A DNA stretch of 64,000 nt from Elusimicrobiota bacterium (GCA_016207605.1 JACQPJ010000016.1:2452-66451); one strand, 5' to 3'; counted from the stretch's first letter, positions 3,569 through 52,076 are shown. Program-made: numbers and translations. Notes: generated from the sequence alone by a model not told the origin.

Positions 3569-4237
3569 TTGGACTTTGTAAAGCGCTTTGTGCGACAATC
3601 GGCTGACGAGGAGTTTCGAGTGCTTTTGAGTGTCATTTTCTTCATCGTCTTGTCCTTCGCCGGAGGCTGCGGCCGCGACCCTTCGGGCGCGGCACAGACG
3701 CGGCTGCGGAAAGCTTTTCAGCGTCTAGGCGGCGCTCCCTCCGCCGGTCCCCGGCTGCCTGATTTCCAGCTCACCGCCGTCGCCGGCGAAAAGACCGCGC
3801 CGCTCTCCCGCGCCGTGCTTCTCGGCCGCCCCTGGGCCGCGAATTTCATCTACACGCGCTGCGCCGGGCCTTGCCCGATGCTGAGCGCGCGCATGGCTTC
3901 GCTTCAGGCGCGCTTGCCCAAATCCGTCGCGCTGATCTCCTTCACCGTGGATCCCGACCACGACTCCCCTGAAATTTTAGCTGGCTACGCTCGACGCTTC
4001 CGTGCCGATCCCAAGCGCTGGCGCTTCGTCACCGGCAAAAAATCAGCGCTCTTAAATCTTTTCCGCGACGGCTTCCACATCGCCGTCGCGGAGAGCGCGA
4101 GCGCGCCGATCGGCGACAACATCGCCCACAGCACGAAGTTCGTCCTTGTCGACGCGGAGGGCCGCCTGCGCGGCTACTACGACGGCGACGATCCTGCGTC
4201 CCTCGACCGCCTCGTCTCCGACGCGTCGTCGCTCTGA
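3569..4237 (+). CDS. SCO1/SenC family thioredoxin-fold copper chaperone, probable lipoprotein. A GTG start at 3620 is an alternative.
   Basis: CAGPC (CxxxC) motif, PDFxLT start of the mature domain, hydrophobic N-terminus with an FAGGC lipobox-like motif. A copy of the CTAG repeat lies in-frame at 3667-3728. Confidence 0.7.
   Translation: MDFVKRFVRQSADEEFRVLLSVIFFIVLSFAGGCGRDPSGAAQTRLRKAFQRLGGAPSAGPRLPDFQLTAVAGEKTAPLSRAVLLGRPWAANFIYTRCAGPCPMLSARMASLQARLPKSVALISFTVDPDHDSPEILAGYARRFRADPKRWRFVTGKKSALLNLFRDGFHIAVAESASAPIGDNIAHSTKFVLVDAEGRLRGYYDGDDPASLDRLVSDASSL
3667..3728 (+). repeat. Copy A of the ~60-bp CTAG-bounded repeat family, in-frame inside the sco1-like CDS; left terminus degenerate (CTGC instead of CTAG).
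   Basis: Aligned by eye to copies at 8840, 8896, 25241 and 52012. Shared core GCGACCCTTCGGGCGCGGCACAGAYGCG...GGAAAGC..TAGCGTCTAG. Confidence 0.7.
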
Positions 4238-4253
4238 CGCACTAACGGATGGT

Positions 4254-4757
4254 TCAGCGCGAGGCCGTCAGGCGCTCGATGACGTCTTTGGCTTGGGGGA
4301 ATTGTCCGAGCAACTCCTGGCGGTCTCCTAGTTCGAAGTCGGCGAAATCGAAGCCAGGAGCGACGGTGCAGCCGACGAAGGAGTAGGCGCTCCCGGCGCC
4401 GGGATAGGCGCCGAACCAACAGCCGGCGGGGACGACGTGCTGCAATTTCTGGCCGGCCTTGAAATCGGGGCCCATCATCACGGTTTTGATGCGTCCCGAG
4501 GGGAATAACTGGATGAGAGTCAGCGGACCGCCTTGGTAGAAATGCCAGACCTCATCCGACTTGATGCGATGCAGGCGGGGCTTGGAGCCTTGCGGAAGGA
4601 GAAAATAGATCGCCGTGGAGTAGCTTCGAGTTCCCTGGAAGTCCTTGGGCAAGGACTCGGCGGAGATAGTTCCCTTGGAGCGGTAGGACTCCTTGAAGTA
4701 GCCCCCCTCGGGATGGGATTGAAGGCCGTAGGCCTTCACTAATTCGGGGACGGTCAT
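4254..4757 (-). CDS. Cupin-fold protein, DUF985-like.
   Basis: 167-aa ORF with a cupin-like beta-rich sequence; ATG at 4755-4757. Confidence 0.55.
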   Translation of the reverse strand: MTVPELVKAYGLQSHPEGGYFKESYRSKGTISAESLPKDFQGTRSYSTAIYFLLPQGSKPRLHRIKSDEVWHFYQGGPLTLIQLFPSGRIKTVMMGPDFKAGQKLQHVVPAGCWFGAYPGAGSAYSFVGCTVAPGFDFADFELGDRQELLGQFPQAKDVIERLTASR

Positions 4758-4764
4758 GGATATT

Positions 4765-5949
4765 TTATACCAGGGCGGTCAGGAATTTATCCGCGCTGAT
4801 GACGCGCACGTCGTCCTTTATATAATCCTCTCCGGGCGCGCGGACCACTTGGTAGGACAGCGGCAGGCCCAGCTTTGCCTTGAAGTGGAGCAGGGGTCTG
4901 GAGAGGTCGCGCGCAGAGAGCTTCGCCTCGACGCAGAACCAGGGCTTGTCGTCCACCGCGACCAAGAAATCGACCTCGCGGCCCTCGACGTCCCGGAGGA
5001 AGCGAAGCTCCGCGCGGATTCCCTCGGCGTCATGGAGGTAGTGGCAGAACTTCAGCAGGTGCGACGCGATGAGATTTTCGAACCGCGGCCCCGTCTCCGC
5101 CACCTCGGACCAGTCCCAGAGATACAGCTTGGGCTCCTTGCGCAGGGCCTTGATTCGCGTGCTTTGCTGAGGGCGGATGCGGAAGTGGTAGTAGAACCGC
5201 TCCAGCACATCGACCCAGGCGGCGGCGGTCTCGTGCGCGACGGCGAGGTCTTCTCGAAGAGAGTTGACGGAAAGCAGGCCGCCGATCTTTTCCGGAAGCA
5301 GATGGACCAGCGTCTCGACGCCGGAGAGGTCTCTGAGATTTTCGATGTCGCGGATGTCTTCCCGCACGAGCGCGTCCAAACGCTGGTTGTGCCAGCGTCG
5401 GAGGGCCTTTTCCGTTCCCTTCAAGAAAATCTCGGGGAAGCCTCCGAATTTCATCAGGCGGTCGAGAGCGTCGCGGGTTTGGCTCGTCGAGTCGTCAAAA
5501 TCCAGGGCGCGGCCGACGAGCGGGCTTGGCGGCGCGTTTTTAGCCGCAATTTCGCGCAAGGATAGCGGGTGAAGGCGGTAGTGATGGTATCGGCCCAGCA
5601 GGGAATCGCCGCCCTTGCGGTAGACATCCAGCCTGGAACTGCCGGTGACGACAATCTTGTGCCGCGCCCGGTGCTTGTCGAAGAAGCCCTTGATGAAGGT
5701 TTTCCACCGCCGGTATTTGTGGAGCTCGTCGAAGATCAGGAGCGTCTCGTCCGCTGCGAAAGTTCCCGTGAGAATCCGTTTCGCGTCTTCCCGGTCATCC
5801 CAATTGAGATATCGAAAGCGGTTCTTGAAGCTGTCTTGGCCGATCGTTCTTGCCAGCGTCGTTTTGCCGACCTGACGGGGTCCCCCGATGAAGGTCATTT
5901 TCTCCGCCAAATCGCTAAGAATAGACTTTTCTATGTAACGAGTGAGCAT
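4765..5949 (-). CDS. AAA+ ATPase with a C-terminal DUF4143-like region.
   Basis: Walker A GGPRQVGKTT, Walker B LLIFDELH; size and architecture typical of the AAA_14/DUF4143 family. Confidence 0.7.
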   Translation of the reverse strand: MLTRYIEKSILSDLAEKMTFIGGPRQVGKTTLARTIGQDSFKNRFRYLNWDDREDAKRILTGTFAADETLLIFDELHKYRRWKTFIKGFFDKHRARHKIVVTGSSRLDVYRKGGDSLLGRYHHYRLHPLSLREIAAKNAPPSPLVGRALDFDDSTSQTRDALDRLMKFGGFPEIFLKGTEKALRRWHNQRLDALVREDIRDIENLRDLSGVETLVHLLPEKIGGLLSVNSLREDLAVAHETAAAWVDVLERFYYHFRIRPQQSTRIKALRKEPKLYLWDWSEVAETGPRFENLIASHLLKFCHYLHDAEGIRAELRFLRDVEGREVDFLVAVDDKPWFCVEAKLSARDLSRPLLHFKAKLGLPLSYQVVRAPGEDYIKDDVRVISADKFLTALV

Positions 5950-6030
5950 TCTTTCTCCAACAATTTAGACCATAGTATAAAATTATTGCCAATTTATTCT
6001 ACTATGGCAGAATAAATTTAAGGTCGACGG
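5950..6030. promoter_or_regulatory. Strongly AT-rich 80-bp intergenic island containing the inverted repeat CCATAGTA-n22-TACTATGG.
   Basis: Roughly 30% GC against a roughly 70% GC background; sits directly upstream of the AAA ATPase start on the minus strand. Confidence 0.3.
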
Positions 6031-6813
6031 CTAAAGCTTGACGCCAAGGCGCGGGTCGGCGATGATCTCGTCGAAGGCGGCGGGGGGGTAGGCGCCGCGC
6101 AGCGGGACGCCGTTGACGAGGAAGCCGGGGGTGCCGGCGAAGCCAAACTGGCGGCCTTCCTCTATATCAGCGTCGATCTTGGACTGGACGGCCTTGCTCT
6201 TGGCGTCCTGGGCGGCCTTGGCGGGATCTAAGCCCAGGTCCTTGACGGTCTTGCGGTAGAAATCCTCGCCGAGCTTGTCTTGGTTCGAGAACATCTTATC
6301 GTGGAAGAGCCAGGCCTTTTCGGGAGATTGGAGGGTGACGGCCTCCATCCACTGGGCGGCGGGCCGGGCTTGCGGATGGAGTTCGCTCAGCGGCATGTGC
6401 TTGAAGACGAAGCGCATCTTGGCGCCGTATTTCCGACGCACTTGCTCGACATTTGGGTAGCTGCGGCCGCAGGGGGGGCACTGGAAATCGGCATACTCCA
6501 CGACGGTGATGGGCGCTTCTCTTGAGCCGCGGACGCGGGTTTTGGCGTCGATGGCGGGTTTGTAGGGGGTCTTGAACGCCGCGTCGCGCTCCCTCTTCTC
6601 GCGCTCCTGCTCCTGCTGGGCCTGCTGAATCTGGTATTCGCGCTGGGAGTCGATGACGAGCTGGAAGAACTCGGCCTTCTTCGACTTCTTGAGGGCGGAG
6701 AGCACTAGGTCGGGGTTGTCGTCGAGCGCCTTCTGGAGTTCCTCCCGGCTGACGGCCGCCAGGGAGGGGGAGGCGAGCGCGGCGCACAGCGCGGCGGCGG
6801 CGAAGCGGTTCAT
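6031..6813 (-). CDS. DsbA-family thiol:disulfide oxidoreductase, secreted.
   Basis: Signal peptide, CPPC active-site motif, thioredoxin-fold length. Confidence 0.7.
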   Translation of the reverse strand: MNRFAAAALCAALASPSLAAVSREELQKALDDNPDLVLSALKKSKKAEFFQLVIDSQREYQIQQAQQEQEREKRERDAAFKTPYKPAIDAKTRVRGSREAPITVVEYADFQCPPCGRSYPNVEQVRRKYGAKMRFVFKHMPLSELHPQARPAAQWMEAVTLQSPEKAWLFHDKMFSNQDKLGEDFYRKTVKDLGLDPAKAAQDAKSKAVQSKIDADIEEGRQFGFAGTPGFLVNGVPLRGAYPPAAFDEIIADPRLGVKL

Positions 6814-6868
6814 GATGATCTCCTTTGCGACGCGGCAAAGCCGCCCGAGGATATCATTTTTACGGTGT

Positions 6869-6904
6869 GTCCCCGCCCGCTCCCGCGCGGGAGCGGGCGG
6901 GGAC
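6869..6904. terminator. Perfect 36-bp GC palindrome (GTCCCCGCCCGCTCCCGCG/CGCGGGAGCGGGCGGGGAC) just past the 3' end of the TetR gene; terminator-like hairpin without a canonical U-tract.
   Basis: Read directly from the sequence; a T-run precedes it on the + strand. Confidence 0.4.
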
Positions 6905-6935
6905 GATTGCGGCGGGTCAGCACCCGCAGGGGGTC

Positions 6936-7562
6936 TTAGGTCCCATGTCGTTGTCTCCTCCTATTCGCGGCTTTATGCGTCTCCAGAATCGAGCGGGCGA
7001 CGGCGCCCACCCGCCGGAAGATCGTGGGGTCGCGCTGCGTCCGGGCGAGCATGATCGCGCCCTCGTAGAGGGAGGCGATCGCCTCCGCGGCGGCGCGCGC
7101 GTCCAAATCGGCGTCGAAATAGCCCGCAGCCTTGCGGCGCTCCAGGCAGGCGGTCATGCCCGCGGTCCACTCCGCGAAGAAGCGGCCCACGCGGTTTCGA
7201 AACGCCTCGCTCTGGTCGCTCATCTCCAGGGCGATGTTGCCCATGAAGCAGCCCGCCTTGCAGCCGTTGCCGCCGAAAAGCTTCGCGGCGTCCTGGAACA
7301 TCTGGGCCACGGCCTGCTCTGGCGCGTCCTGCGTGCACAGCGGCGCGACCCGGCGCGAGCGGAACTCCTCGATCTTGTAGTCGAGCACGGCCAGCGCCAG
7401 CTCCGCCTTGGAACCGTAGTGGTGGAAGACGTTGGCCTTGGTCGTCTTGCAGGCCTCGGCGATCTCCTCCATGCATGCGGCGCCGTAGCCCTTGAGGTGG
7501 AGCACGTGCTCCGCCTCCTTCAGGATGCGTTCCCGCGCGGCGACGTTTGGTTTTCGTCCCAT
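6936..7562 (-). CDS. TetR/AcrR family transcriptional regulator; start trimmed to MGRKPNV.
   Basis: N-terminal HTH (TTKANVFHHYGSKAEL) typical of TetR; ATG at 7560-7562. Confidence 0.75.
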   Translation of the reverse strand: MGRKPNVAARERILKEAEHVLHLKGYGAACMEEIAEACKTTKANVFHHYGSKAELALAVLDYKIEEFRSRRVAPLCTQDAPEQAVAQMFQDAAKLFGGNGCKAGCFMGNIALEMSDQSEAFRNRVGRFFAEWTAGMTACLERRKAAGYFDADLDARAAAEAIASLYEGAIMLARTQRDPTIFRRVGAVARSILETHKAANRRRQRHGT

Positions 7563-7564
7563 AG

Positions 7565-7590
7565 ATTGACTGACCGTCCGGTCAATCAAA
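7565..7590. promoter_or_regulatory. Candidate TetR operator: near-perfect palindrome ATTGAYTGACCG-tc-CGGTCAATCAAT abutting the tetR start codon.
   Basis: 11 of 12 bases match in the inverted arms, immediately 5' of the TetR start; an autoregulatory operator arrangement is typical for TetR regulators. Confidence 0.4.
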
Positions 7591-7626
7591 TAATGGCACA
7601 ACAGTCCGGTTCCTGTCAAGGCCCGT

Positions 7627-8736
7627 TCAGCGGGAAGGCCAGGGCGTCGGCTCGGAGCCGATGCCGGCGCGCACGCGGGAGAGGTCGTAGACGCCGCCGC
7701 GGCCGAGGCGGACGCCGCGCGCCGGGTCCTTCTTGAGCCAGAGGGGGGTGTCGAGGTCGATGAAGCGAAAACCGCCCAGGCCGGCGGCGAAGTGCGCGGC
7801 GCAAGACATCGCCAGCGACGTCTCGATCATGCCGCTGATCATGAGGCCCAGCCCCTGGGCGCGCGCGATCAAGGCGACGTCCCAGGCCTCCAAGATCCCC
7901 ATCTTCATGAACTTGACCACGAGGACGGAGGCCGCCTTGCGTCGGGCGAGCCCCAGGGCGTCGGCGCGCCCGCGCAGGGACTCGTCGGCGGCCACGGGCA
8001 CGCCCCCGCGCCGCGCCACGGCGGCCAGGCCGTCCCAGTCGTCGGCGGCCGCGGGCTGCTCGAAGAGGGAGGGGCGCAGGTTCGCGGCCTTGAGCGCGCG
8101 CAGGAGGGCGAGCGACTCGCGCGGGCCGTAGCCCTGGTTGGCATCGAGCGTGAAACGCGCGGCCGGGTGCGCGGCGCAGGCCGCGGCGACGCGCGCGGCG
8201 TCTTCCTGGATGTCGCGTCCCACCTTGATCTTCATGGTCCGCACGCCCAAGGCGCGGATGCGCCGCGCCGCGGCGGCCGCGGCCTCGGGGGAGCCGAGAG
8301 TCACGGTCACGTCGCTGAACACTTCCGTCTCGGCCCCGCCGAAGAGGATGCGCAAAGGAATCCTCGCGCGCTTGGTCCAGGCGTCGAGCAAGGCCATGCC
8401 GAGAGCGGCGCGCGCCGCGCCTGCGCCCTGGGGCAGGGCCTCCTCCAGCTCCTCAAGCCGCGCGCGCCACGCCGAGGCGTCTTGTCCCAGCCAGCGCTTG
8501 CCTGCCCTGTGCGCGGCGGCCAAGGCGCCCGCGGCCGTCTCGCCGTTGAAGGCCGGCAGAGGGGAAGCCTCCCCGTAGCCCGTCGTCCCGTCGCGCAGGC
8601 GCAGGCGCACGAACGCGCCCTCGTGAACGGCCGTCGCGCCGCCGGCGATCTCGAAGGGTTCGTTGAGCTCGGCGCGGAAAGGCCGCGCGTCCAGCGCCAC
8701 GATCTCGGCGGCGAGGGCTTGTCTCACGCGGGCCAT
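7627..8736 (-). CDS. Enolase-superfamily enzyme (mandelate racemase / muconate lactonizing / dipeptide epimerase type).
   Basis: KxK motif (KIKVG), barrel-domain acid residues, length around 370 aa. Confidence 0.6.
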   Translation of the reverse strand: MARVRQALAAEIVALDARPFRAELNEPFEIAGGATAVHEGAFVRLRLRDGTTGYGEASPLPAFNGETAAGALAAAHRAGKRWLGQDASAWRARLEELEEALPQGAGAARAALGMALLDAWTKRARIPLRILFGGAETEVFSDVTVTLGSPEAAAAAARRIRALGVRTMKIKVGRDIQEDAARVAAACAAHPAARFTLDANQGYGPRESLALLRALKAANLRPSLFEQPAAADDWDGLAAVARRGGVPVAADESLRGRADALGLARRKAASVLVVKFMKMGILEAWDVALIARAQGLGLMISGMIETSLAMSCAAHFAAGLGGFRFIDLDTPLWLKKDPARGVRLGRGGVYDLSRVRAGIGSEPTPWPSR

Positions 8737-8839
8737 TGTAGCCTTCCTACGGGCATCGAATCCGTCGCGGTCCAGGGTCAAAAGGCCTAGCCAGACCTAG
8801 GTCTTTTGACCCTTCTTTCCAGATGCATTTGGCCGCACC

Positions 8840-8956
8840 CTAGATGCTATGAGCCTTTCCTCAACGCATCTGTGCCGAGCCCGAAGGGTCGAGGCCTAGA
8901 TGCTAAAAGGCATTCCTCTCCTACATCTGTGCCGAGCCCGAAGGGTCGAGGCCTAG
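8840..8956. repeat. Two tandem copies (8840-8899 and 8896-8956, sharing a CTAG) of the ~60-bp CTAG-bounded repeat, in the divergent intergenic region.
   Basis: Direct tandem duplication visible in the sequence; reverse-complement orientation relative to copies A, C and D. Confidence 0.75.
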
Positions 8957-8963
8957 GGAACCC

Positions 8964-9665
8964 ATGCGCGCGCTTCTCGCCGCCTCGCTCGTGTCCCTGG
9001 GACTGTCCGCCTACGGGGAGGAGTTTCCGGCGGCCGTCGGCCGCGCCTCGGCGGGATTTGGAGACTCGCTGCGCCGAGCCCGCGACGAGGAGCTTAAACG
9101 GCACGAGAAGAATCTTATATTGGAACAAATGCGGGGCGATTCCTCCCGGGATGCGACCTTGTGGGCGTTCAGCTACAGGTCGGGAGACCCGGACGAGGAC
9201 ATGTTCTCCGATCGCGTGAACACGGCGTTTTGGGACAGCGCCTTGCCCAACAAAATTTTGGTCTTTGCCGAGAATGCCGCCGGACTCGACGAGCAGATTC
9301 GCGGGACGTACGATGGGGGGCGCCGGTTGCGCAGGCTGGTGATCCTCTCCCAGGGGGCTTCGACTCTCGTCGAGAGCCTGCGCGCGGCCAATCCTCGCGC
9401 TCCCGGGCCGCGGGGCCTGGACCGAGCCTTCGCCCCAGGAGCCGAGATTTTTCTCCAGGCTCCTTGCGTCGGATCCGACGGCGCGCAAGCCAGGTTCATG
9501 GTCCGCGTCGGCAGAAAGTATCTCTCGCGAAACGGCGGCTGGGTCGCGGCGCCGCGCGGGGCCTGTGATTGGAAGACGGGGATCTTGGGCTCGGGCAAAG
9601 GTTATCTCCGGTGCCTCGTTCGACCGGGAGGGACGGTCGAGTTCGCCGAGAACGTGGACTTGTGA
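8964..9665 (+). CDS. Hypothetical secreted protein.
   Basis: Signal-peptide-like N-terminus (MRALLAASLVSLGLSAYG); no recognised domain. Confidence 0.4.
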   Translation: MRALLAASLVSLGLSAYGEEFPAAVGRASAGFGDSLRRARDEELKRHEKNLILEQMRGDSSRDATLWAFSYRSGDPDEDMFSDRVNTAFWDSALPNKILVFAENAAGLDEQIRGTYDGGRRLRRLVILSQGASTLVESLRAANPRAPGPRGLDRAFAPGAEIFLQAPCVGSDGAQARFMVRVGRKYLSRNGGWVAAPRGACDWKTGILGSGKGYLRCLVRPGGTVEFAENVDL

Positions 9666-10958
9666 TCAGGCCGCGATGAGCGCGCGGGCTTCGTCCAGGG
9701 AGACGGCCCGCTCCTCGCCGGTCCTGAGGTTCTTGAGCTGGAGGACGCCGCGCGCGGCCTCGTCGGGGCCGATGGCGACCGCCCAGGACGCCTTCTTTTG
9801 ATCGGCGTATTTGAATTGGGCCTTGAGCTTGGCCATGCCCGGGAACACGTCGGCGACCAGGCCTTGGGCGCGCAGGGCCGCGCCGATCTCGATGGAGCGG
9901 GGGCGCAGAGAGTCGTCGAAGACGGTGACCACGACGTCCGGGGAGCCGGGGTCCTCGGCGTCGTTTTTTTCTTCCAATAAAAGCAGCAGGCGCTCGAAGC
10001 CGATGGAGGCGCCGCAGGCCGGTACGGGCGGGCCGCCGAAGACCGCCGTGAGGCGGTCGTAGCGTCCGCCGCCGCCCAGCGAGCCGGAGAGCGAGGGATG
10101 GCGGAACTCAAAGACCGGGCCGGTGTAGTAGCCCAGGCCGCGCATGAGGTGGGGCGACAGGCGTAGCCGCGCGTCGGGCGCGACGGCTTGGACCGCGCTC
10201 TCGATGCGGCGCAGGGCCGAGACTTCCGCCGGGCCCAGGGCCTCGTAGGCCGCGCCGGCCTCTTCGCTCATCAAGGTCTTCTCGACCGCGGCGGCGGGAC
10301 CGGCGCCCAGCTCGGCGGAAAGTTCCGTCAGGATTTGAGAGCGCTCCAGCTTGTCGAGCTTGTCGAGGATCACGCAGGCCGCGTCGCGCTTCTCCGGAGG
10401 GACCTGCGCGGTCTCCAGCGCGCGCTCGACGAGGCGGCGATCGTTCAAATGGACCTCGATGCCGGAGAGCCCGAACTCGCTGAAGACCGCCAGGATCGCT
10501 AGGATGATCTCGACCTCCGCGCCCCAGGAGTCCGCGCCGACGATGTCGGCGTCGCACTGCCAGAACTCGCGGTAGCGGCCTTTCTGCGCGCGCTCGGCGC
10601 GCCACACGGGGCCCAGGTGGTAGGCCTTGAACGGATGCGGAAGCTGGGAGCCGTGCCGCGCGTAATAGCGCGCCAGCGGCAAGGTGAGGTCGAAGCGCAG
10701 ACCCAGGTCGGCGAGCTCGCCGTTCTCGGCCCGGGCGCGCTCCAGCGCCTCGCCTCGCCGCATCACCTTGAAGATGAGCTTTTCGTTCTCGCCGCCGCCC
10801 TGGCTCGTGAGCGCCGCCAGGTCCTCGAGCGCGGAGGTCGCGATGGGCTGGTAGCCGAAGGAGCGATAGACGCGCGCGATCGTCTCGGCGGCGCGCTGGC
10901 GCAGGGCGGCCTGGCCGGGCAGGAAATCGCGAAAGCCCGACGGCGGCGTCGAGTTCAT
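9666..10958 (-). CDS. hisS: Histidine--tRNA ligase; start trimmed to MNSTPP.
   Basis: Class II aaRS motifs (FRDFLP, GGGRYD, GFERL) and a C-terminal anticodon-binding domain. Confidence 0.85.
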   Translation of the reverse strand: MNSTPPSGFRDFLPGQAALRQRAAETIARVYRSFGYQPIATSALEDLAALTSQGGGENEKLIFKVMRRGEALERARAENGELADLGLRFDLTLPLARYYARHGSQLPHPFKAYHLGPVWRAERAQKGRYREFWQCDADIVGADSWGAEVEIILAILAVFSEFGLSGIEVHLNDRRLVERALETAQVPPEKRDAACVILDKLDKLERSQILTELSAELGAGPAAAVEKTLMSEEAGAAYEALGPAEVSALRRIESAVQAVAPDARLRLSPHLMRGLGYYTGPVFEFRHPSLSGSLGGGGRYDRLTAVFGGPPVPACGASIGFERLLLLLEEKNDAEDPGSPDVVVTVFDDSLRPRSIEIGAALRAQGLVADVFPGMAKLKAQFKYADQKKASWAVAIGPDEAARGVLQLKNLRTGEERAVSLDEARALIAA

Positions 10959-10992
10959 GCTGGGTAGGGTAGCAAAATCGTAAACTCGCCGA

Positions 10993-17402: not shown

Positions 17403-17404
17403 AA

Positions 17405-23244: not shown

Positions 23245-25244
23245 TGGCCGCGCCTTTCTCGGAGCTGGAGCGCCGGGTCGCCTCCGGCTCCCTGCTCACC
23301 TCCGCGGCCGACTTGGCCGTCTACTCCTACGACGGCGCGCTCGACCGCGGCCGGCCCGAGGCCGTCCTGATCGCGCGCTCGACTGAAGACGTCGGCGCCG
23401 CGATCTCCTGGTGCGCGGCCCGCCGCGTCCCTTTCACGGCGCGCGGCGCCGGCACCAACCTGTCCGGCGGCTGCGTCCCGCTCCGGGGAGGCCTGGTGAT
23501 CTCCCTGGCCCGGCTTCGCCGCATCCTCTCCATCGACCGGGACGCCCGCGTCGCCTGCGTCGAGCCCGGTGTCGTCAACCTGGAGCTGCAGAAGGCCGCC
23601 GAGCCCCTCGGCCTCTTCTACGCGCCCGACCCCGCGAGCTTCCGGGTTTCGACGATCGGCGGCAACGCCGCCGAGAACGCCGGCGGGCCGCGCTGCCTCA
23701 AATACGGCGTCACCACCAATCACGTCCTGGCCGCCGAGGCCGTGCTTCCGGACGGCAGCCTGGCGCGCTTCTCCCTCGAAGACGACGGCCCCGAGCTTTT
23801 GAGCCTCCTGATCGGCGCGGAGGGCACGCTTGGCCTGCTGACCAAGCTCTGGGTGCGCCTGACGCCGCTGCCCGAGGACGTCCGGACCCTGCTGGCGGGG
23901 TTTCCGGTCCTCGACGCCGCCGTGGAGGCGGTCTCGGCCGTGATCGCGGCCGGCGTCCTGCCCCGCTGCCTGGAGGCCATGGACGCCGCCACCGTCGCCT
24001 CGGTGGAGGCGGGCGGCGGCTTGGGCTATCTCAAGGACCCCGCCGTCCTGCTCATCGAGCTCGACGGCCCCCGCGCCGACGTGGAGCGCGAGGCCGGGAT
24101 CGTCGAGAGCCTCTGCCGCGGGAAGGGCGCCTCCGCCGTGCGCGCGGCGCGCGACCCCGCCGAGCGCGAGCGCCTCTGGGAGGGACGCCGCGGCGCCTAC
24201 GCCGCCCTCGCCCGCCTGGCCCCCAACGTCCTGGTCGAGGACGGCGTGGTGCCGCGCGACAAGCTCCCCGAGGTGGTGCGGCGGATTCAACGCATCGCCG
24301 CGGAGCACGACGTCAAGGCCTATTTATTGTTTCATGCCGGCGACGGCAACATCCACCCCAACATCGCCTTCGACGAGCGCGACCCCGAGGAAACCGCCCG
24401 CGTCAAGGCCGCCGGCCGCGCCATGCTCCAGGCCTGCGTGGAGCTGGGCGGCTCGCTCTCCGGCGAGCACGGCATCGGCATGGACAAGCGCGACGCCATG
24501 GCCTGGCTCTTCACGCCCGAGACCCTGTCCCTCTTCCGCCGCGTCAAGGACGCCCTCGACCCCGACCATCTCGCCAACCCCGGCAAGATCTTCCCCGCGC
24601 CCGGCGGGGCGCGCCCCGGCCCGGAGTTCCGCCGTCCCGCGCCTGCGCCGCCGAGCGCGGCGGCGCAATACCTGGTCGCGGCGGTCCGCTCCGCGCCTCC
24701 GGGCGTCCGCTTTCGCATCCGCGGCGCCTCGACCCGCTGGCCCGACGCGGCCCCCGACGGCGCCGTCGAGCTGCTCACCCACGGGATGGACCGCATCCTG
24801 GACCTGGACCGCGGCAACCTCACCCTCACCGTCGAGGCGGGCATTCCGCTCCGGGTCCTCCACGACCAGCTCCGGGGCGAGAAGCTCCACGTTCGGCTGC
24901 CCGACGCCCCCGGCACCCTCGGCGGCCTCCTCGCCGCCCGTCCCTGGCCCGGCGCCCGCGAGGATCTGCTCGGGATGCGCCTTCTGCTGTCCAACGGCGA
25001 CGTGGTCGAGCTGGGCGGCAAGGTCGTCAAGAACGTGGCCGGCTACGACCTGTCCCGCCTCGTCCTCGGCTCCTGGGGGACCCTCGGCCTCATCCTGGAC
25101 GCGACCTACAAGCTTTACGCCGCTCCCGTCGCGGTCCCGTCCTCCGTGCCCGCCGTCCGGCCGCCCGCCGTCTGGTCCCCGTGGGCCCGCCGCGTCCGCC
25201 GAGCCTTCGACCCCGACGGCCGCCTGAATCCGCAGCTGTCCTAG
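23244..25244 (+). CDS. glcD: FAD-linked oxidase, fused GlcD-GlcE type (two FAD-binding PCMH domains).
   Basis: Two tandem FAD_binding_4-like regions in 666 aa; ATGA overlap with the kinase; stop codon supplied by repeat copy C. Confidence 0.65.
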   Translation: MAAPFSELERRVASGSLLTSAADLAVYSYDGALDRGRPEAVLIARSTEDVGAAISWCAARRVPFTARGAGTNLSGGCVPLRGGLVISLARLRRILSIDRDARVACVEPGVVNLELQKAAEPLGLFYAPDPASFRVSTIGGNAAENAGGPRCLKYGVTTNHVLAAEAVLPDGSLARFSLEDDGPELLSLLIGAEGTLGLLTKLWVRLTPLPEDVRTLLAGFPVLDAAVEAVSAVIAAGVLPRCLEAMDAATVASVEAGGGLGYLKDPAVLLIELDGPRADVEREAGIVESLCRGKGASAVRAARDPAERERLWEGRRGAYAALARLAPNVLVEDGVVPRDKLPEVVRRIQRIAAEHDVKAYLLFHAGDGNIHPNIAFDERDPEETARVKAAGRAMLQACVELGGSLSGEHGIGMDKRDAMAWLFTPETLSLFRRVKDALDPDHLANPGKIFPAPGGARPGPEFRRPAPAPPSAAAQYLVAAVRSAPPGVRFRIRGASTRWPDAAPDGAVELLTHGMDRILDLDRGNLTLTVEAGIPLRVLHDQLRGEKLHVRLPDAPGTLGGLLAARPWPGAREDLLGMRLLLSNGDVVELGGKVVKNVAGYDLSRLVLGSWGTLGLILDATYKLYAAPVAVPSSVPAVRPPAVWSPWARRVRRAFDPDGRLNPQLS

Positions 25245-25300
25245 GAGCGTGTCCTGCGGACGCGGCACAGATGCGCTGAGGAAATCCCCATAGCGTCTAG
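25241..25300 (+). repeat. Copy C of the CTAG-bounded repeat; its terminal CTAGs supply the stop codons of glcDE (+) and the XRE regulator (-).
   Basis: TAG at 25242-25244 and CTA at 25297-25299 both lie within the element termini. Confidence 0.7.
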
Positions 25301-25641
25301 TCGTCCCGGACGAGGGACTTGAGCACGCGCAGGACCTTCGAGCGCTGCCGGGGCGACATCTCCTTGACCATCGCGCCCATCTTGCCGGCCCAGCCGTAAT
25401 CAGGGAGTTGGCGCGTCGGGATGTCCGCAAAAATACTGGCGACCGGGACTCCCAGCGCGTCGGCCAATCTCTTGACCATATTGATGCTGGGCGCGGTTTT
25501 CCCGTTCTCGATCCGGCTCAAATGCGCGGTGTCCACGGCCGCCGCCTCCGCCAACTCCTGCTGGGTAAAATGGCGCGCTTCCCTCTCCGTCTTGACGCGC
25601 CGTCCGATCAAGGCGTAGAGCTCGGTCGTGGAGAAGCTCAT
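25297..25641 (-). CDS. XRE-family HTH transcriptional regulator.
   Basis: HTH_3 region (FTQQELAEAAAVDTAHLSRIENGK). Confidence 0.7.
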   Translation of the reverse strand: MSFSTTELYALIGRRVKTEREARHFTQQELAEAAAVDTAHLSRIENGKTAPSINMVKRLADALGVPVASIFADIPTRQLPDYGWAGKMGAMVKEMSPRQRSKVLRVLKSLVRDD

Positions 25642-28284: not shown

Positions 28285-28358
28285 GCGGGCGTGGTTCATT
28301 GGTAGAACGGGTCCTTGCCAAGGATCAGACGGCGGTTCGATTCCGCTCGCCCGCTCCA
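28285..28358 (+). tRNA. tRNA-Gly (anticodon GCC), CCA encoded.
   Basis: Acceptor stem GCGGGCG/CGCCCGC, anticodon loop cuUGCCAag, T-loop GGTTCGATTCC; cloverleaf folded by eye. Confidence 0.9.
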
Positions 28359-29282: not shown

Positions 29283-29369
29283 CGGAAGGGGTGGGATTCG
29301 AACCCACGAGGGGCTTGCGCCCCTGGCAGTTTTCGAGACTGCTACCTTCAACCGCTCGGTCACCCTTCC
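29283..29369 (-). tRNA. tRNA-Ser (anticodon CGA), long variable arm, CCA not encoded.
   Basis: Reverse complement folds with acceptor GGAAGGG/CCCTTCC, anticodon loop cuCGAaa, variable arm, T-loop GGTTCGAATCC. Confidence 0.85.
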
Positions 29370-39492: not shown

Positions 39493-39629
39493 TCCGTTCA
39501 TTTCATTATGGCGCTGCCCGCCGTCCCCCTCGCAACGATCATGCCCTGGCACGACGCTCGGAGCGGACCCGCGGTCCATTCGTTGCGGCCATGCTATGAT
39601 AGATACGCGAGGGGAACTGCGGGGGGCTT

Positions 39630-40073: not shown

Positions 40074-40085
40074 GGAGGTGGATGC

Positions 40086-43890: not shown

Positions 43891-43936
43891 AGCGCGGGAG
43901 GATACTACAACATTCTTAATGCTAGCATCCCGCACA

Positions 43937-44488
43937 ATGGGCCCCTGGGACGCCCTCGCCGCGCTCGACGCCTGGCTGCTCCTCAAGATCAACCGCGCCT
44001 GGACGAGCCCCTTCCTCGACGCGGCCATGCCCGCGCTCACGGACCTGCACAAGCTCGCCTGGTTTTGGTTCGCGGCGCCCGCCGCGCTCGGCCTCTGGCT
44101 GTGGCGGGGGCGCCGCCGCGCCCTGCAGGTCCTTGTGGTCCTGGGCCTGGCCTGCGGTTCGGCCGACCTCCTTTCCTACCGCGTCCTCAAGCCGGCCGTC
44201 CGCCGCCTGCGGCCGTCCGTCGCGGGCCAGCCCGTCGTCCTGCGCGCGCCCGTGTCGGGCAAGCCCGGCTTTCCCTCCAACCACGCCGTGAACATGGGGG
44301 CGGGCGCCGCCGTGCTCTCGAGCGCCTATCCCCTGGGCGCTCCCCTCTTTTGGGCCGCCGCGGCCGCCGTCGCCTACAGCCGCGTCTACTGCGGCGCGCA
44401 TTACCCCGCCGACGTCCTGGCGGGGCTGGCGCTGGGCGCCCTGGTCGGCTGGCTCTGGGCGGCGCTGCTCAAGCGCTGGCTGCGCTGA
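43937..44488 (+). CDS. PAP2-family phosphatase (undecaprenyl-diphosphatase-like).
   Basis: KxxxxxxRP, PSNH and SRVYCGAHYPADV motifs. Confidence 0.65.
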   Translation: MGPWDALAALDAWLLLKINRAWTSPFLDAAMPALTDLHKLAWFWFAAPAALGLWLWRGRRRALQVLVVLGLACGSADLLSYRVLKPAVRRLRPSVAGQPVVLRAPVSGKPGFPSNHAVNMGAGAAVLSSAYPLGAPLFWAAAAAVAYSRVYCGAHYPADVLAGLALGALVGWLWAALLKRWLR

Positions 44489-44515
44489 GAGGACGACGCC
44501 CGCCGGGCCGCTCCC

Positions 44516-47738
<3,223 letters not shown>

Positions 47739-47746
<8 letters not shown>

Positions 47747-48851
47747 GCAGGGCCTCCCGGCGGTTGATCATCAGCGCCCGGAAGCGCTCGAAGAGGTAGC
47801 GGCTGTCGTGCGGCCCGGCCGAGGCCTCCGGGTGGTACTGCACCGAGAAGACGGGCAATTCCATGTGCGCCATGCCCTCGGAGGTGCCGTCGTTGAGATT
47901 CACATGCGTCGTCTTTACTTGCTTGGGCAGGGATTTCAGGTCCACGCAGAATCCGTGGTTCTGCGACGTGATCTCGATCTTGCCCGTCGCGAGGTCCTTG
48001 ACCGGATGGTTCAACCCGTGGTGCCCGAACTTGAGCTTGAAGGTCCTGCCGCCCAGCGCCAGGCCCAGGAGCTGGTGGCCGAGGCAGATGCCGAAGATCG
48101 GCAGGCGCGCGTCGAGCAGGCCCTTGATCGCGTCGACGCCGCGGGTCACGGGCTCGGGGTCGCCGGGGCCGTTGGAGAGCAGGACGCCGTCGGGCTTGAG
48201 GCGCAGGATCTCCGCGGCGCCGGTCGCGGCGGGAACGACCGTGGCGCGCGCGCCCATGGCCGCCAGTCCGCGCAGGATGCCGTACTTGACGCCGAAGTCC
48301 ATCACCGCGACGTGGAGCGCGGGCTTGGCCGGGGCGTTCTCCTCCCACTCGTAGGGCTTCTCGCAGGTCACGACCTCGGCCAAATTTTGTCCCGTCATGG
48401 AGGGCAGGGCGCGGGCCTTGGCGACGAGGCGCCTGGGATCGGCGTCCAGCGTCGAGATCACGCCGCGCAGCGCGCCTTTCTCGCGCAGGCGCAGGGTAAG
48501 CGCGCGGGTGTCGACGCCCTCGATGGCGACCACGCCGTGCTTGCGCAGGAAGTCGCCCGCGGACTCGACCGACTCGTGGTTGGAGGGGCGGCGGCAGAGC
48601 TCCCGCACGACGAAGCCCGACAGCCGCGGCCGCGCCGACTCGTGATCGCGCGCCGTGATGCCGTAGTTGCCGATGAGGGGATAGGTCATCACGACGCACT
48701 GCCCGGCGTAGGAGGGGTCGGTCAGCACCTCCTGGTAGCCGGTCATCGCGGTGTTGAACACGAATTCCCCGCCCGCCTCGCCCGAGGCGCCGCAGGCCTC
48801 GCCCACGAGCACCGTCCCGTCCTCCAGCGCCAGCCACGCCTTATTGTTCAT
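47739..48851 (-). CDS. carA: Carbamoyl-phosphate synthase small (glutaminase) subunit.
   Basis: CPSase small-chain N-domain plus class I glutamine amidotransferase (GICLGHQLL). Confidence 0.9.
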
Positions 48852-48852
48852 T

Positions 48853-51033
48853 TTAGTGCCTGAAGTGCCTCATGCCGGTGAAAACCATGGCGAGCTTGTG
48901 CTCGTCGGCGGCGGCGATGACCTCCGCGTCCTTGACCGAGCCGCCGGGCTGGACCAGGGCGGTGATGCCCAGCGTCGCGGCGGCGTCGATGCCGTCGCGG
49001 AAGGGGAAGAAGGCGTCGGAGGCCAGCACCAGCGCCCTGGGCGCGGGGTTGTCGCGGCCCCAGAGCCTGTACTTGACGCCGGCCATGTGCACCGAGTCCA
49101 CGCGCGACATCTGCCCGGCGCCCAGGCCCACGGTCTGCTCGGGGCCGGCCAGCACGATGGCGTTGGACTTGACGTGCTTGGCGCAGGCCCAGGCGAAGCG
49201 CAGCGCGACGTCCTCGTCCGGCGTCGGGGCGCGCTTGGTGACGACCTTCCAGTCCGGCCCCGCGACGGCGCGGTCGGGCTCCGTGACCAGGACCTCGTCG
49301 CCGATGGAGCGCAGCTGCAGGGCCTTGGTCGGCGGTCGACTGCGCTCGAGCAGGCGCACGTTGGGTTTTTTCTTTAATGACTCCAGGGCGGCGGGCTCAT
49401 AGCCTGGGGCGACGAGGACCTCCACGAAGCGTTTGGAGAGAAGCTCGGCGATGGCGAGGGTGACGGGACGGTTGAAGGCCAGCGCGCCGCCGAAGGCGGA
49501 GAGCGGGTCGCAGGCCCAGGCCCGCTCGAAAGCCTCCTCGATCGTTTTGCCGATGCCGATGCCCGCCGGCGTGACGTGCTTGAACACGACGGCCGCGGGT
49601 TGATCGAAGTCGCTGACCGCGTCCCAGGTCCCCGCGGCGTCCAGCAGGTTGTTGTAGGAGAGCTCCTTGCCGTGAAGCTGCTTGAACGACATTCCGCTTT
49701 CGTTGGCGTAGAGCGCGGCTTTCTGGTGGGGGTTCTCGCCGTAGCGCAGGTCCTGGACCTTGGAGAGGCGGGGGCTCAAGTCCGCGGGGAAGGCGGCGCC
49801 GGTGGGCGCGGCCTGGGCGGACCAGGCGCTCGAGATCATGCCGTCGTAGCCGGCCGTGTGCCGGAAGGCCGCCAGCGCCAGGCGGCGGCGCGTCGGCTCT
49901 GAGAGCCGTCCCTGAGAGGAGGCAAGCTCCGCGAGCGTGCCGGCATAGTCTGCGGGCGAGGTGAGCACGGCCACGTCCTCGAAGTTCTTGGCCGCGGCGC
50001 GGATCAGCGCGACGCCGCCGATGTCGATCTGCTCGATCACCGCGGGATCGTACGCCGAGGGCGCGGCGGCGGCGGTCTTGGCGAAGGGGTAGAGATTAAC
50101 AACGACTAGATCGATGGGTTCCAGGCCGAAGAGCTCCGCCTCACGGATCTGGTTGGGGTCCTTGCGCCGCAGCAGGATGGCGCCGTGCACGCTTGGATGC
50201 AGGGTTTTCACGCGTCCGTTCAGGATCTCCGGGAAGCCCGTCAGGGATTCAAGAGGGCGGATGGGCACGCCCGCCGCGAGCAGGGCCTTGGCCGTGCCGG
50301 AGGTCGAGACGATCTCCACGCCCAGCTCGCGCAGGCCGCGCGCCAGCTCCACGACGCCGCTCTTGTCCGAGACCGAGATCAGCGCGCGCCGCGCCCGAGG
50401 CGAGGGGTCGGGCGGCGGAGGCAGGATCTCGGCGCGGCCGCCGGCGAGCTTGACCCGGCCCGCGCAGAGGAGCGCGACGGCCTGGGGGTAGAGGCGATGC
50501 TCCTGGACGAGCACGCGCGCGGCCAAGGTCTCCGGCGTGTCGCCGGCGACCACCGGCACGGCCGACTGCAGGAGGATGGGGCCGTGGTCGTACTCCTCGT
50601 CCACGACGTGGACCGTGGCGCCGCTGACCTTGGCGCCGGAGGCCAGGACGGCCTCGTGCACGCGGCGGCCGTACATGCCCGGTCCGCCGAAGGCGGGCAG
50701 GAGGGCGGGGTGGATGTTGAGGATGCGGCCGGGGAAGGCCTTGAGCAGGGGGGGGCGCAGCTTGAGCAGGAAGCCCGCCAGGCAGATCAGCTCCGCGCCG
50801 CGCCGGGAGCACTCGTGCGCGAGGAAGGCGTTGTACTCGTCCGGAGTCGGATGGTCGGCCGGGGCCGAGACCAGCGTCTCGACGCCCGCGGCCCGCGCGC
50901 GGCGCAGGGCGCCCGCATCGGCTTTGTTCGAGACGACCAGGACGACCTCGCCGCGCGCGCGCCCGTCGCCGCAGGCGTCGAGCAGGGCCTGGAGGTTGGT
51001 GCCCTCTCCGGAGGCGAAGACCGCGAGGTGCAT
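48853..51033 (-). CDS. purH: Fused PurN (GAR formyltransferase) :: PurH (AICAR formyltransferase / IMP cyclohydrolase).
   Basis: N-terminal roughly 200 aa are PurN-like (LVVSN...NIHPALLP); the remainder is PurH (MGS-like ISVSDKSG... then the AICARFT region), in one continuous 726-aa ORF. Confidence 0.75.
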   Translation of the reverse strand: MHLAVFASGEGTNLQALLDACGDGRARGEVVLVVSNKADAGALRRARAAGVETLVSAPADHPTPDEYNAFLAHECSRRGAELICLAGFLLKLRPPLLKAFPGRILNIHPALLPAFGGPGMYGRRVHEAVLASGAKVSGATVHVVDEEYDHGPILLQSAVPVVAGDTPETLAARVLVQEHRLYPQAVALLCAGRVKLAGGRAEILPPPPDPSPRARRALISVSDKSGVVELARGLRELGVEIVSTSGTAKALLAAGVPIRPLESLTGFPEILNGRVKTLHPSVHGAILLRRKDPNQIREAELFGLEPIDLVVVNLYPFAKTAAAAPSAYDPAVIEQIDIGGVALIRAAAKNFEDVAVLTSPADYAGTLAELASSQGRLSEPTRRRLALAAFRHTAGYDGMISSAWSAQAAPTGAAFPADLSPRLSKVQDLRYGENPHQKAALYANESGMSFKQLHGKELSYNNLLDAAGTWDAVSDFDQPAAVVFKHVTPAGIGIGKTIEEAFERAWACDPLSAFGGALAFNRPVTLAIAELLSKRFVEVLVAPGYEPAALESLKKKPNVRLLERSRPPTKALQLRSIGDEVLVTEPDRAVAGPDWKVVTKRAPTPDEDVALRFAWACAKHVKSNAIVLAGPEQTVGLGAGQMSRVDSVHMAGVKYRLWGRDNPAPRALVLASDAFFPFRDGIDAAATLGITALVQPGGSVKDAEVIAAADEHKLAMVFTGMRHFRH

Positions 51034-52076
51034 CAGGAAATCACGGCCTCGCTCTTGCCGGCGACGATCTCGCCGACCAGCCGCGCCTGCGGCAGGATTC
51101 GGCGGGCCAGCTCCAGGCTGTCAGGGCGGATCACGATCACGAGCCCCAGCCCCATGTTGAAGGTGCGCCACATCTCCCGGTCGGGCACGCGCCCGCGGCG
51201 CTGAATCTCGGCGAAGACGGGAGGCGGAGTCCAGGCTTGGCGATGGAAGACCGCCCGGCGCCCGCGGGGCAGGACGCGGGGCACGTTCTCGACCAGGCCG
51301 CCGCCCGTGATGTGCGAGAGGCCCAGGATGATCTTGCCCTCCGCGCGGAAGGCCCTCTGGAGCGACTGCACCGCGTCGACGTAGATGCGCGTCGGCGCCA
51401 GCAAAGTCCTGCCCCAGCGGCGCAGGTCCTTCTCCGGAAAGACGCGCCGCGCCAGCGAGTAGCCGTTGGAGTGCAGGCCCGAGGAGGGCAGGCCCAGGAT
51501 CAGATCGCCGGGGAAGATCTTGGAGCCGTCGATGACGTCGGCGCGCTTGACCAGGCCGACCGCGAAGCCGGCCAGGTCGTACTCGCCGGCCGGGTAGAAG
51601 CCCGGCATCTCCGCGGTTTCGCCGCCCAGCAGCACGCAGCGCCCCTGGCGGCAGCCCTCCATGATCCCGGCGATGATCTTCTTGGAGCGCTTGAGGTCCA
51701 GCTTGCCCGTCGCGTAGTAGTCGAGGAAGATCAGCGGCTTGGCGCCGCAGGTGATGAGGTCGTTGACCGACATGGCGACCAGGTCGACGCCGATGGTGTC
51801 GTGGCGGTCGAGGGCGAAGGCCAGCTTGAGCTTGGTGCCCACGCCGTCGGTGCAGGCGACCAGTTCCCAGGGCCCGTCGCCCTCAAGCTCCAGCGGGAAG
51901 AGGCCCGCGAAGCCGCCGATGGCCGGGGCCCGGCGCCGGATGTGCTCCACCAGCTTGTCGGCGAGGTCTATGTTGACGCCGGATTTTCGGTAGGTGAGGG
52001 CGCTATGGCGCCTAGGCCGCGACCCTTCGGGCGCGGCACAGACGCGGCCGCGGAAAGCCTTATAGCGTCTAGGCAT
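51033..52076 (-). CDS. purM: Phosphoribosylformylglycinamidine cyclo-ligase (AIR synthetase) with an N-terminal extension encoded by repeat copy D.
   Basis: The conserved N-terminus begins near LTYRKSGVNID; the only in-frame start is the ATG at 52076, inside the repeat. Confidence 0.8.
   Translation of the reverse strand: MPRRYKAFRGRVCAAPEGSRPRRHSALTYRKSGVNIDLADKLVEHIRRRAPAIGGFAGLFPLELEGDGPWELVACTDGVGTKLKLAFALDRHDTIGVDLVAMSVNDLITCGAKPLIFLDYYATGKLDLKRSKKIIAGIMEGCRQGRCVLLGGETAEMPGFYPAGEYDLAGFAVGLVKRADVIDGSKIFPGDLILGLPSSGLHSNGYSLARRVFPEKDLRRWGRTLLAPTRIYVDAVQSLQRAFRAEGKIILGLSHITGGGLVENVPRVLPRGRRAVFHRQAWTPPPVFAEIQRRGRVPDREMWRTFNMGLGLVIVIRPDSLELARRILPQARLVGEIVAGKSEAVIS
52012..52072 (+). repeat. 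Copy D of the CTAG-bounded repeat; supplies the pyrE stop codon and the purM start/N-terminal extension.
   Basis: pyrE stop CTA (TAG on the minus strand) at 52069-52071, within the terminal CTAG. Confidence 0.7.

Follow-up and report, generated by a model that had tools for sequence, protein, structure and literature searches.

A 57-nt two-hairpin repeat with a CTAG 3' end, found at stop codons and in frame within genes of Elusimicrobiota

The repetitive extragenic palindromic (REP) sequences of Escherichia coli have the form GTAG/GCCGGAT...ATCCGGC. In a survey of GTAG-tagged REPs, the termini of the repeats often supplied the TAG stop codon to flanking open reading frames (ORFs) (Di Nocera et al. 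2013, PMC3733652). Those repeats lay mostly downstream of ORFs, some wholly within them, and neither a CTAG tag nor the Elusimicrobia occurs anywhere in that survey (PMC3733652). Here we describe a repeat with a CTAG 3' end, of which five copies lie in a 64-kb stretch of DNA from an Elusimicrobiota bacterium (64,000 nt; GCA_016207605.1, JACQPJ010000016.1:2452-66451; hereafter the window), and which we judge likely to be a small mobile element, REP-like, non-autonomous and peculiar to the Elusimicrobiota. Loci outside the window are designated by L and a number.

The element resembles REP and REPIN sequences in consisting of a short, GC-rich, imperfect palindrome beside an xTAG, here CTAG/GCCGGG...CCCGGC, and in occurring at high copy number, mostly 3' of ORFs at convergent or co-directional junctions. 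Its first hairpin (22-25 nt) and the distribution of its copies agree with the short (20-40 nt), dispersed, downstream palindromes by which REPs are recognized, whereas the GTAG or CGTC tag of REPs is absent: the constant CTAG of the element stands at the foot of its second hairpin, and the tetranucleotide on the side of the first is derived from the target. It also differs in having a unit of 57 nt with two unlike hairpins, where a REP is one palindrome or an inverted doublet, and in that no REP-associated tyrosine transposase (RAYT) was found in the approximately 0.56 Mb searched around it.

Rickettsia palindromic elements (RPEs), which reportedly go back to Ogata et al. in 2000, offer a second comparison. 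They are selfish structured repeats that lie in frame in unrelated housekeeping genes and are translated (PMC10969869). Our element likewise enters unrelated genes in frame, a likeness of behavior and not an identity; RPEs are about 100-150 bp long, belong to another phylum, and have no reported coincidence with stop codons or CTAG end.

Members of the IS200/IS605 family insert 3' of a specific tetra- or pentanucleotide, with target information on the 5' side only. Like them, and like palindrome-associated transposable elements (PATEs), the element has no inverted termini, makes no target duplication, carries unlike subterminal hairpins and inserts 3' of a short sequence. It departs from them in that its hairpins stand directly at its ends, with no space for a guide segment as in IS608, in that no lagging-strand polarity was detected by GC skew, a noisy proxy, and in that no TnpA was found in the DNA searched. 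It resembles the IS91, ISCR (insertion sequence common region) and Helitron elements in its insertion next to a tetranucleotide without duplication, its subterminal 3' hairpin and its CTRR-type 3' end, and remnants of an ISCR-like gene occur in the same genomes; however, the element lies within the coding tail of that remnant, and we know of no derivative nearly as small as 57 nt. Mycobacterial interspersed repetitive units (MIRUs) are 50-100-nt units in operons whose ends overlap the flanking stop and start codons, as those of our element do at pyrE-purM, yet MIRUs form tandem arrays of variable number and lack the two-hairpin anatomy, and we know of no demonstration of a precise, single-unit MIRU insertion in unrelated ORFs. 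The element has neither the inverted repeats nor the target duplication of miniature transposable elements with inverted repeats (MITEs), and neither the GTTRRRY core nor the cassette arrays of integron attC sites.

Supply of stop codons, intragenic copies and in-frame insertion are thus a behavior already known from GTAG REPs and RPEs. What is new is the 57-nt two-hairpin family with its CTAG 3' end and target-derived left tetranucleotide, its confinement to one phylum, and a stop-swapping geometry documented with empty sites. Enzyme and polarity aside, the element fits a pattern of the HUH type.

Filled and empty sites

Alignments of orthologous sites show a precise 57-nt insertion with lineage-specific presence. 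One such site lies in a gene that corresponds to the C-terminal third of ISCR/IS91-type transposases (NCBIfam ISCR_clade_Ia, E 6e-14; hereafter the ISCR-like remnant). Its empty form (L080, L083) reads GGCTTCG/TCTTCGG and its filled form (L082) reads GGCTTCG-(GCCGGG...GCGTCTAG)-TCTTCGG, a difference of exactly 57 nt with zero duplication. Without the element the protein continues as ...FPKT/KPSR(A/S)PP..., and with it FPKT is followed by RRYxDFxSxVCAGPEGSRP and then, in frame, by the homologous tail; most homologues of this gene have no element. Similarly, the glcD/glcE fusion at L020 carries two in-frame, element-encoded inserts of 19 aa (LDAMRTSSAASVPGLPRPG), neither of which is present in the window gene, and at the junction ...ARPWPG/AREDLLGM... 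of the window L020 has ...TKAWPG-(19 aa)-LREDLLGM....

Two of the window copies can be compared in the same way. The Sco1/SenC-family lipoprotein that contains copy A has 205 aa, against typically 186 aa in about 120 homologues, and alignment with seven homologues leaves a single 19-column gap directly after the lipobox Cys; the lipoprotein signal ends in FAGGC, and copy A follows directly. In the DNA, L087 reads ...GGCTGCG/CGAAG... and the window minus 57 nt reads GGCTGCG/GCGGCG, with TGCG present once in the relative. PurM of the window has 347 aa, against 321-331 aa in 119 homologues (72-85% identity); its additional residues lie between codon 2 and the conserved LTYRKSGV, and copy D in translation gives 19 additional residues near the N-terminus. 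The pyrE-purM junction reads ...AAAATGCCTAGCGCG... at L086 and ...ATGGCTAGCGCC... at L084, both with ATG(C/G)CTAGCGC and without the insert, and the window minus 57 nt gives ...AAGCATGCCTAGGCGCC.... Presence differs also at the stop of hisS, where L073 has a tandem pair and the window no copy, and in the carB region, where a convergent junction is occupied at L052 (about 80% protein identity) and empty in the window.

An earlier note, made from the window alone, had placed five copies there and had described a REP/MITE-like repeat of gene 3' ends that is tolerated in coding sequence. All five places are confirmed by the sequence and by a covariance model, and precise presence and absence bear out the general description, of which the likeness to REPs stands and the strict sense of MITE falls with the missing inverted repeats and duplication. 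The note had also named, among the things that would overturn it, that the repeat be ordinary ancestral coding sequence: the orthologues of Sco1 and PurM lack the 57 nt, and at the sco1, purM and pyrE junctions the relatives have no element and an intact target. Certain details need correction. Of the CTAG assigned to both ends, only that at the 3' end belongs to the element, the left one being the target tetranucleotide. Copy A does lie in frame in the Sco1 gene, but the CTGC on its left, taken for a mutated CTAG, is the native lipobox Cys codon TGC plus G, which relatives have too. Copy D does extend PurM, by 19 residues, but does not supply the purM start codon, the ATG of which is two bases outside the element. 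The features are collected in Table 1.

Table 1. Coordinates of element copies, flanking tetranucleotides and associated genes in the window, and of ISCR-like remnant units at other loci
Feature	Position	Strand	Description
Copy A	3672..3728	+	57 nt; in frame (19 aa, DPSGAAQTRLRKAFQRLGG region) within Sco1 lipoprotein, directly after lipobox Cys
Copy A left flank	3668-3671	+	TGCG, native
Copy B1	8840..8895	-	56 nt; downstream partner of tandem pair
Copy B2	8896..8952	-	57 nt; upstream partner of head-to-tail pair; divergent intergenic region
Copy B2 left flank	8953-8956		CTAG
Copy C	25245..25300	+	56 nt; most diverged copy; compensatory changes in hairpin 1
Copy D	52016..52072	+	57 nt; pyrE/purM junction, genes on opposite strand
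Copy D left flank	52012-52015		CTAG, old stop/target
Copy D terminal CTAG	52069-52072		Holds present pyrE stop
Sco1/SenC-family lipoprotein gene	3569..4237	+	PF02630; contains copy A; NCBI call begins at GTG 3620, 205 aa
glcD/glcE fusion stop	25242-25244	+	TAG within left-flank (target) CTAG 25241-25244 of copy C
XRE-type regulator	25297..25641	-	Stop 25297-25299 in copy C terminal CTAG 25297-25300
purM	51033..52076	-	347 aa; copy D in frame; ATG 52074-52076 outside element
pyrE	52069..52641	-	About 190 aa; stop TAG 52069-52071 in element terminal CTAG
ISCR-like remnant unit, L080	6001-6570
ISCR-like remnant unit, L083	3351-3956
ISCR-like remnant unit, L082	219-800; also 1898-2080, 2706-2987
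ISCR-like remnant unit, L031	1704-2231
ISCR-like remnant unit, L075	3097-3654

As read from these junctions, the element inserts as a precise 57-nt block directly 3' of a tetranucleotide and without target duplication (TTCG/...CTAG/ in the remnant, TGCG/...CTAG/ in Sco1, and both GlcD/E inserts). The preferred target is YTAG, in the order CTAG > TTAG > TCAG, with others tolerated (TGCG, TTCG and more): flank positions -4 to -1 (n = 64) hold C in 34 and T in 24, T in 45, A in 46 and G in 58, and information is at background level at -5 and throughout the 3' side. Because the 3' end of the element is itself CTAG, always so among copies recovered with a pattern that requires it, a second copy can insert behind a first, giving head-to-tail pairs with one shared CTAG. 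Such pairs are found as B2/B1 in the window, where the terminal CTAG of B2 (8896-8899) is also the target tetranucleotide of B1, and at L073 and L009. Outside the element CTAG is eight-fold rarer than base composition predicts (0.41/kb vs 3.19/kb expected, in 449 kb of Elusimicrobiota loci and the window). In loci selected for the element, the repeat's own and flanking CTAGs add approximately 70-140 to the 184 elsewhere.

The same junctions would be read differently under a classical MITE of a DDE transposon, as a 53-nt element with a 4-bp CTAG duplication. IS5 targets YTAR with a 4-bp duplication; CTAG stands on both sides in 22-27 of the 69 non-redundant copies, TTAG being the next commonest left tetranucleotide; and decay of about 15% per site could give such a pattern from a once-perfect duplication. 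Independent filled and empty sites without duplication (the remnant, Sco1, two GlcD/E inserts) argue against this, as do the confinement of flank information to the 5' side and the single CTAG common to tandem copies. Moreover, terminal inverted repeats are absent: the first 12 nt match the reverse complement of the last 12 at 2.7/12 on average, which is the random level. We regard a MITE as highly improbable, and the model of CTAG target duplication, which we weighed owing to the IS5-like YTAR preference, was rejected on the empty sites.

A few irregular sequences lie beside copies. At L072 (approximately 927-950) a full copy has on its left AGCGTCTAG-GCC-AGCGTCTAG-GCCGGG..., a 12-nt mini-unit formed of the element's first 3 and last 9 bases, and at L004, on the minus strand beside the copy at 6011-6079, a full copy is preceded by a lone ...AGCATCTAG. 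Such aberrant junctions may be traces of abortive insertion or of internal deletion. Just left of B1, window positions 8785-8812 hold two further CTAGs in a short palindromic stretch (GGCCTAGCC, followed by the 12-nt palindrome AGACCTAGGTCT between AAAAG and CTTTT); these may be sites open to insertion, a footprint, or an operator that has nothing to do with the element.

Anatomy, fold and distribution of the family

Counted from the G after the left tetranucleotide through the last G of CTAG, the unit is 57 nt, or 19 codons, and comprises hairpin 1 (5'-GCCGGG...CCCGGC, with variable inner stem and loop), ACAGA, hairpin 2 (AYGC...GGAAA...GCRU) and CUAG-3'. The length is 57 nt in 50-59 of the 69 copies, a range set by registration of the left boundary. 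The copies of the window fold into the hairpin GCCGCGaCCC-UUC-GGGCGCGGC and a second, AGAYGC...GCRUCU, with a small inner helix; our RNA folding check agrees with the GC hairpin proposed beforehand and bears out the second stem.

Run on the window with filters off, a covariance model of 66 copies of the family retrieved D (E 2e-18), A (8e-16), B1 (8e-16), C (1e-11) and B2 (2e-5), the last with a partial-match score owing to its overlap with B1, and found no sixth copy in the 64 kb. The exact 10-mer GGCACAGAYG occurs in the window at the five element sites only, repeat detection also pairs the five copies, and when aligned in one orientation they have 33 invariant columns in common. The nearest relative of copy A is copy D and vice versa (93%), which fits with the absence of both from related genomes, and the nearest relative of B1 (95%) sits in another assembly (L054).

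We tested the fold with a hand-specified structure of four helices and 19 pairs on 66 aligned copies. Standard pairs fill 86.8% of cells, a share that drops to 25-50% once the 3' partners are displaced by 1-3 columns, and in none of 500 shuffles was the covariation score as high as observed. The Y:R pair of hairpin 2, at which the search pattern permits all four combinations, is U-A in 34 copies, C-G in 30 and other in 2. In hairpin 1 the inner stem and loop are swapped wholesale among copies with pairing preserved (CCC-UUC-GGG, CCU-GGGA-AGG, GCG-CGAGA, CCG-CGAG-CGG), and the unpaired ACAGA and GGAAA are invariant across 22 assemblies. A comparison of G-U with C-A pairs separates the two strands too weakly (86.8% vs 85.2%) for either to be called the functional one.

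To survey the family, the pattern GGCACAGAYG-N14-22-AGCRTCTAG was scanned against one genome for each of 185,579 species, a collection of 596 Gb. At least 79 loci match. Approximately 60 of the 79 matches listed are from Elusimicrobiota metagenome-assembled genomes (MAGs), of groundwater, glacier-fed streams, soils and termite guts; the approximately 19 listed from other phyla lack hairpin 1 and are as many as chance predicts for 596 Gb. Viral contigs gave only three pattern matches, at chance level (about 19 bits) and without hairpin 1. The search of related genomes that the earlier note had called for thus yielded 66 distinct copies in 22 assemblies, alignable over the entire unit, with the family present in at least 21 Elusimicrobiota assemblies besides the source. 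Among the matches listed it is restricted to Elusimicrobiota, and we found no description of it in the searchable literature. Density is five copies in the 64-kb window and approximately one per 8 kb in element loci (approximately one per 8-13 kb overall). Assembly CAYLZQ01 has near-identical copies (93%), which suggests a recent burst as judged from sequence identity; in the other assemblies identity within a genome is 66-79%, like that between genomes (73%).

Elsewhere in the window, GC content is approximately 0.64 at the ends (1-8000, 56000-64000) and 0.70-0.73 in the middle. An ORF at 4765-5949 (-) resembles a P-loop ATPase and has a lower GC content at third codon positions (GC3; 0.77). 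Two tRNA genes, at 28285-28355 (+) and 29283-29369 (-) (Rfam 64 and 55 bits), have no associated element copy. purN and purH form a single ORF of 726 aa at 48853-51033 (-), and are fused also in the relatives L084 and L086 (Formyl_trans_N, MGS and AICARFT domains); glcD-glcE is a single ORF at approximately 23.2-25.2 kb (+) and is fused at L020 too.

Stop codons and in-frame copies

Stops were assigned by stop-anchored tests that called for a long ORF with coding-type GC3, with non-element CTAGs as control. The terminal CTAG is the TAG stop of an opposite-strand gene in 37 of 69 copies, whereas of 184 non-element CTAGs 14% provide a stop to one strand or the other (Fisher 7e-10); the left end holds a stop in only 8-11 of the 69. 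This excess agrees with the association with gene 3' ends noted previously. For 30 of the 37, the tetranucleotide on the left, when reverse-complemented, gives N+stop (CTAG, TTAG, TCAG), so that the old stop is still present beyond the element. The old stops kept there are TAG in 16 cases, TAA in 8 and TGA in 6, against 3.7, 8.4 and 17.9 expected from the background of C-preceded stops (copies with a right-end stop; p ~3e-11), an excess of TAG from which it follows that YTAG as a sequence is preferred, rather than stop codons in themselves.

The geometry by which a gene takes up the element unharmed explains this pattern. An antisense insertion 3' of YYAG, in the sense of the gene, splits the last sense codon after its second base, ahead of 'C+stop'. 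Since the element in that sense begins with C+TAG, the last codon and the stop are restored, the protein is unchanged, and the old stop is displaced approximately 57 nt downstream. Read on the opposite strand, YTAG gives C+TAG or C+TAA, and many surviving insertions for that reason lie exactly on opposite-strand stops.

In the window, ORF listings confirm the stops of glcD/E, the XRE gene and pyrE at their proposed positions, and copy C exactly fills the gap between the convergent glcD/E fusion and the XRE gene. The start of pyrE was set from 190-aa orthologues. The proposal that the element termini provide these stops holds for the present stops of pyrE and XRE, which lie in element CTAGs, but not for the origin of the pyrE stop, which pre-existed in the target CTAG, where relatives read ATGCCTAGCGC; we infer that the glcD/E stop CTAG was likewise a pre-existing target.

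Structured, imperfect palindromes of approximately 60 nt directly after ORF stops also recall integron attC sites at the ends of gene cassettes. The core sites of attC are GTTRRRY/RYYYAAC, and this core is absent from the consensus; moreover, the copies occur in both orientations and are dispersed, beside housekeeping genes and within ORFs, with no cassette arrays. We consider an attC-like role extremely improbable.

Copies within genes follow from the same anatomy. Insertions in genes at places other than the stop should mostly be lost, but the unit has a length of 19 codons and, in 48-61 of 66 copies, three open frames out of six, so that some survive as 19-aa inserts. The in-frame hosts are Sco1 and PurM in the window, GlcD/E twice at L020, and the ISCR-like remnant, with three different frames in use. 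The frame of copy A is closed in 59 of 66 copies by an internal AUAG, where copy A reads UCAG, a sign either of selection after insertion or that a variant copy alone survived.

Candidate mechanism and the ISCR-like remnant

Four features together are the signature of IS200/IS605, of RAYT and REP (the latter pair as summarized in PMC3733652), and of IS91 and Helitron elements: target information on one side only, absence of duplication, subterminal hairpins that differ from each other, and a 3' end resembling the target. The element has all four, its target information lying on the 5' side and its target mimic being the 3' tetranucleotide; on these grounds it would be mobilized in trans by a transposase of the HUH type acting on single-stranded DNA, either RAYT/IS200-IS605-like or IS91-like.

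Several observations weigh against a mobile element of this kind. The RAYT or IS200 gene that the earlier note had proposed to look for was not found: tblastn with approximate queries, a weak test, gave no Y1 homologue in approximately 0.56 Mb taken in 8-kb pieces, and a search for the HUH..Y motif gave none in the same DNA. No gene was flanked by orphan half-elements, the only such pieces being truncated or aberrant tandem junctions at L004, L009 and L072, and the ISCR-like remnant was the sole gene family to recur beside the copies. The polarity toward replication that IS200/IS605-type elements should have did not show: the element strand is the G-rich one in 30 of 61 copies, with GC skew over 8-kb MAG pieces a noisy proxy. 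Every copy was retrieved by a pattern that demanded the core and the right CTAG, and the conservation of both is therefore overstated; pairing on the written strand (86.8%) differs so slightly from that on the complement (85.2%) that the fold is silent on which strand, or whether DNA or RNA, matters. The 37 stop assignments come mostly from a crude ORF/GC3 caller, and homology or annotation backs only four (pyrE, XRE, hisS at L073 and the neighbor gene at L052). Finally, at palindromic CTAG stops the element is antisense in 14 cases (right end only) and sense in 3 (left end only), with 2 serving both, and this bias of approximately 4:1 is beyond what tetranucleotide targeting alone explains.

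A stronger form of the same idea is that the element is adapted for harmless insertion, through the stop swap afforded by a YTAG target and CTAG terminus and through a 19-codon, three-open-frame design, with a mobilizing enzyme of a class so far not known to be linked to such repeats in this phylum. We think this possible but doubtful. Under it the antisense bias would reflect longer-range recognition of gene ends or a role of the RNA in the 3' untranslated region (UTR).

The bias is also the point from which a different explanation starts, namely that the repeat is a structured RNA or DNA signal with a function for the host, such as a 3'-UTR stabilizer or a processing or protein-binding site, its mobility being secondary or absent. 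In its favor are the strong orientation to the upstream gene (37 vs 8-11 overall, and 14 vs 3 at palindromic CTAG stops), covariation in four helices with invariant, unpaired ACAGA and GGAAA, and the old, diverse copies, rather than recent bursts, of most genomes. However, copies stand in both orientations, in 5' regions, at convergent junctions and inside ORFs in three frames, orthologous sites differ in presence, and the strand preference in pairing is slight. Rfam gave the element no match at gathering thresholds over the whole window and no credible match at E <= 10 in two element-bearing stretches, and a terminator and promoter scan around B1/B2 gave nothing. An element recognized by a transposase would show conservation too, and the search pattern inflates it. 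We therefore hold a host function as the primary explanation to be unlikely.

A mobile origin could alternatively be sought in the ISCR-like remnant, the element being a terminal structure (oriIS- or terIS-like) or a miniature derivative of an ISCR/IS91-like rolling-circle element. Elements of the IS91, ISCR and Helitron type insert beside a tetranucleotide without duplication and have subterminal hairpins, and Helitrons end in CTRR. Furthermore, the element adjoins the 3' part of the remnant gene, on the opposite strand, at six loci (L014, L016, L058, L075, L031 and L082). The position of the element speaks against this, since it lies inside the C-terminal tail of the gene and homologous coding sequence resumes after the 57 nt; in addition, the majority of remnant homologues are without it, and homology among remnants extends at least 200 nt past the stop, to a right boundary that falls beyond the end of the contig. 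A full-length transposase was not recovered, all 101 database homologues being of 216 aa or less and mostly on contigs of approximately 1 kb. We consider this origin very unlikely, and the specific proposal of an oriIS end was rejected on the resumed coding tail and the many empty homologues. Judging by these junctions, the remnant is a host of the element, not its parent.

The remnant itself is a repeat unit of at least 0.65 kb, with a protein of only about 190 aa and a left boundary (GTAAGTGRAC...) that is the same in three unrelated loci, and it could be a decayed insertion sequence, an abortive rolling-circle product or an independent small gene. Directly upstream of it at L083 (3115-3390) is a short ORF with a weak match to IS110-type DEDD transposases, and this spot seems to have gathered several mobile-element fragments.

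We return to the reading that we prefer, of a REP-like mobile element, and to what it means for the phylum. The Elusimicrobiota are known almost only by metagenome bins, and this would be their first characterized small mobile repeat, for which a covariance model and exact insertion rules are now provided. The repeat breaks assemblies and shifts stop codons, and it lengthens annotated proteins (PurM and Sco1 by 19 residues each, GlcD/E at L020 by 38), and should be masked or accounted for in annotation. It offers a natural example in which tetranucleotide targeting and selection place selfish DNA exactly on stop codons, and several dated in-frame insertions in housekeeping enzymes with which the tolerance of proteins for inserts may be studied. 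If the mobilizing enzyme is found, the element would be a short, defined substrate convenient for the study of single-strand transposition.

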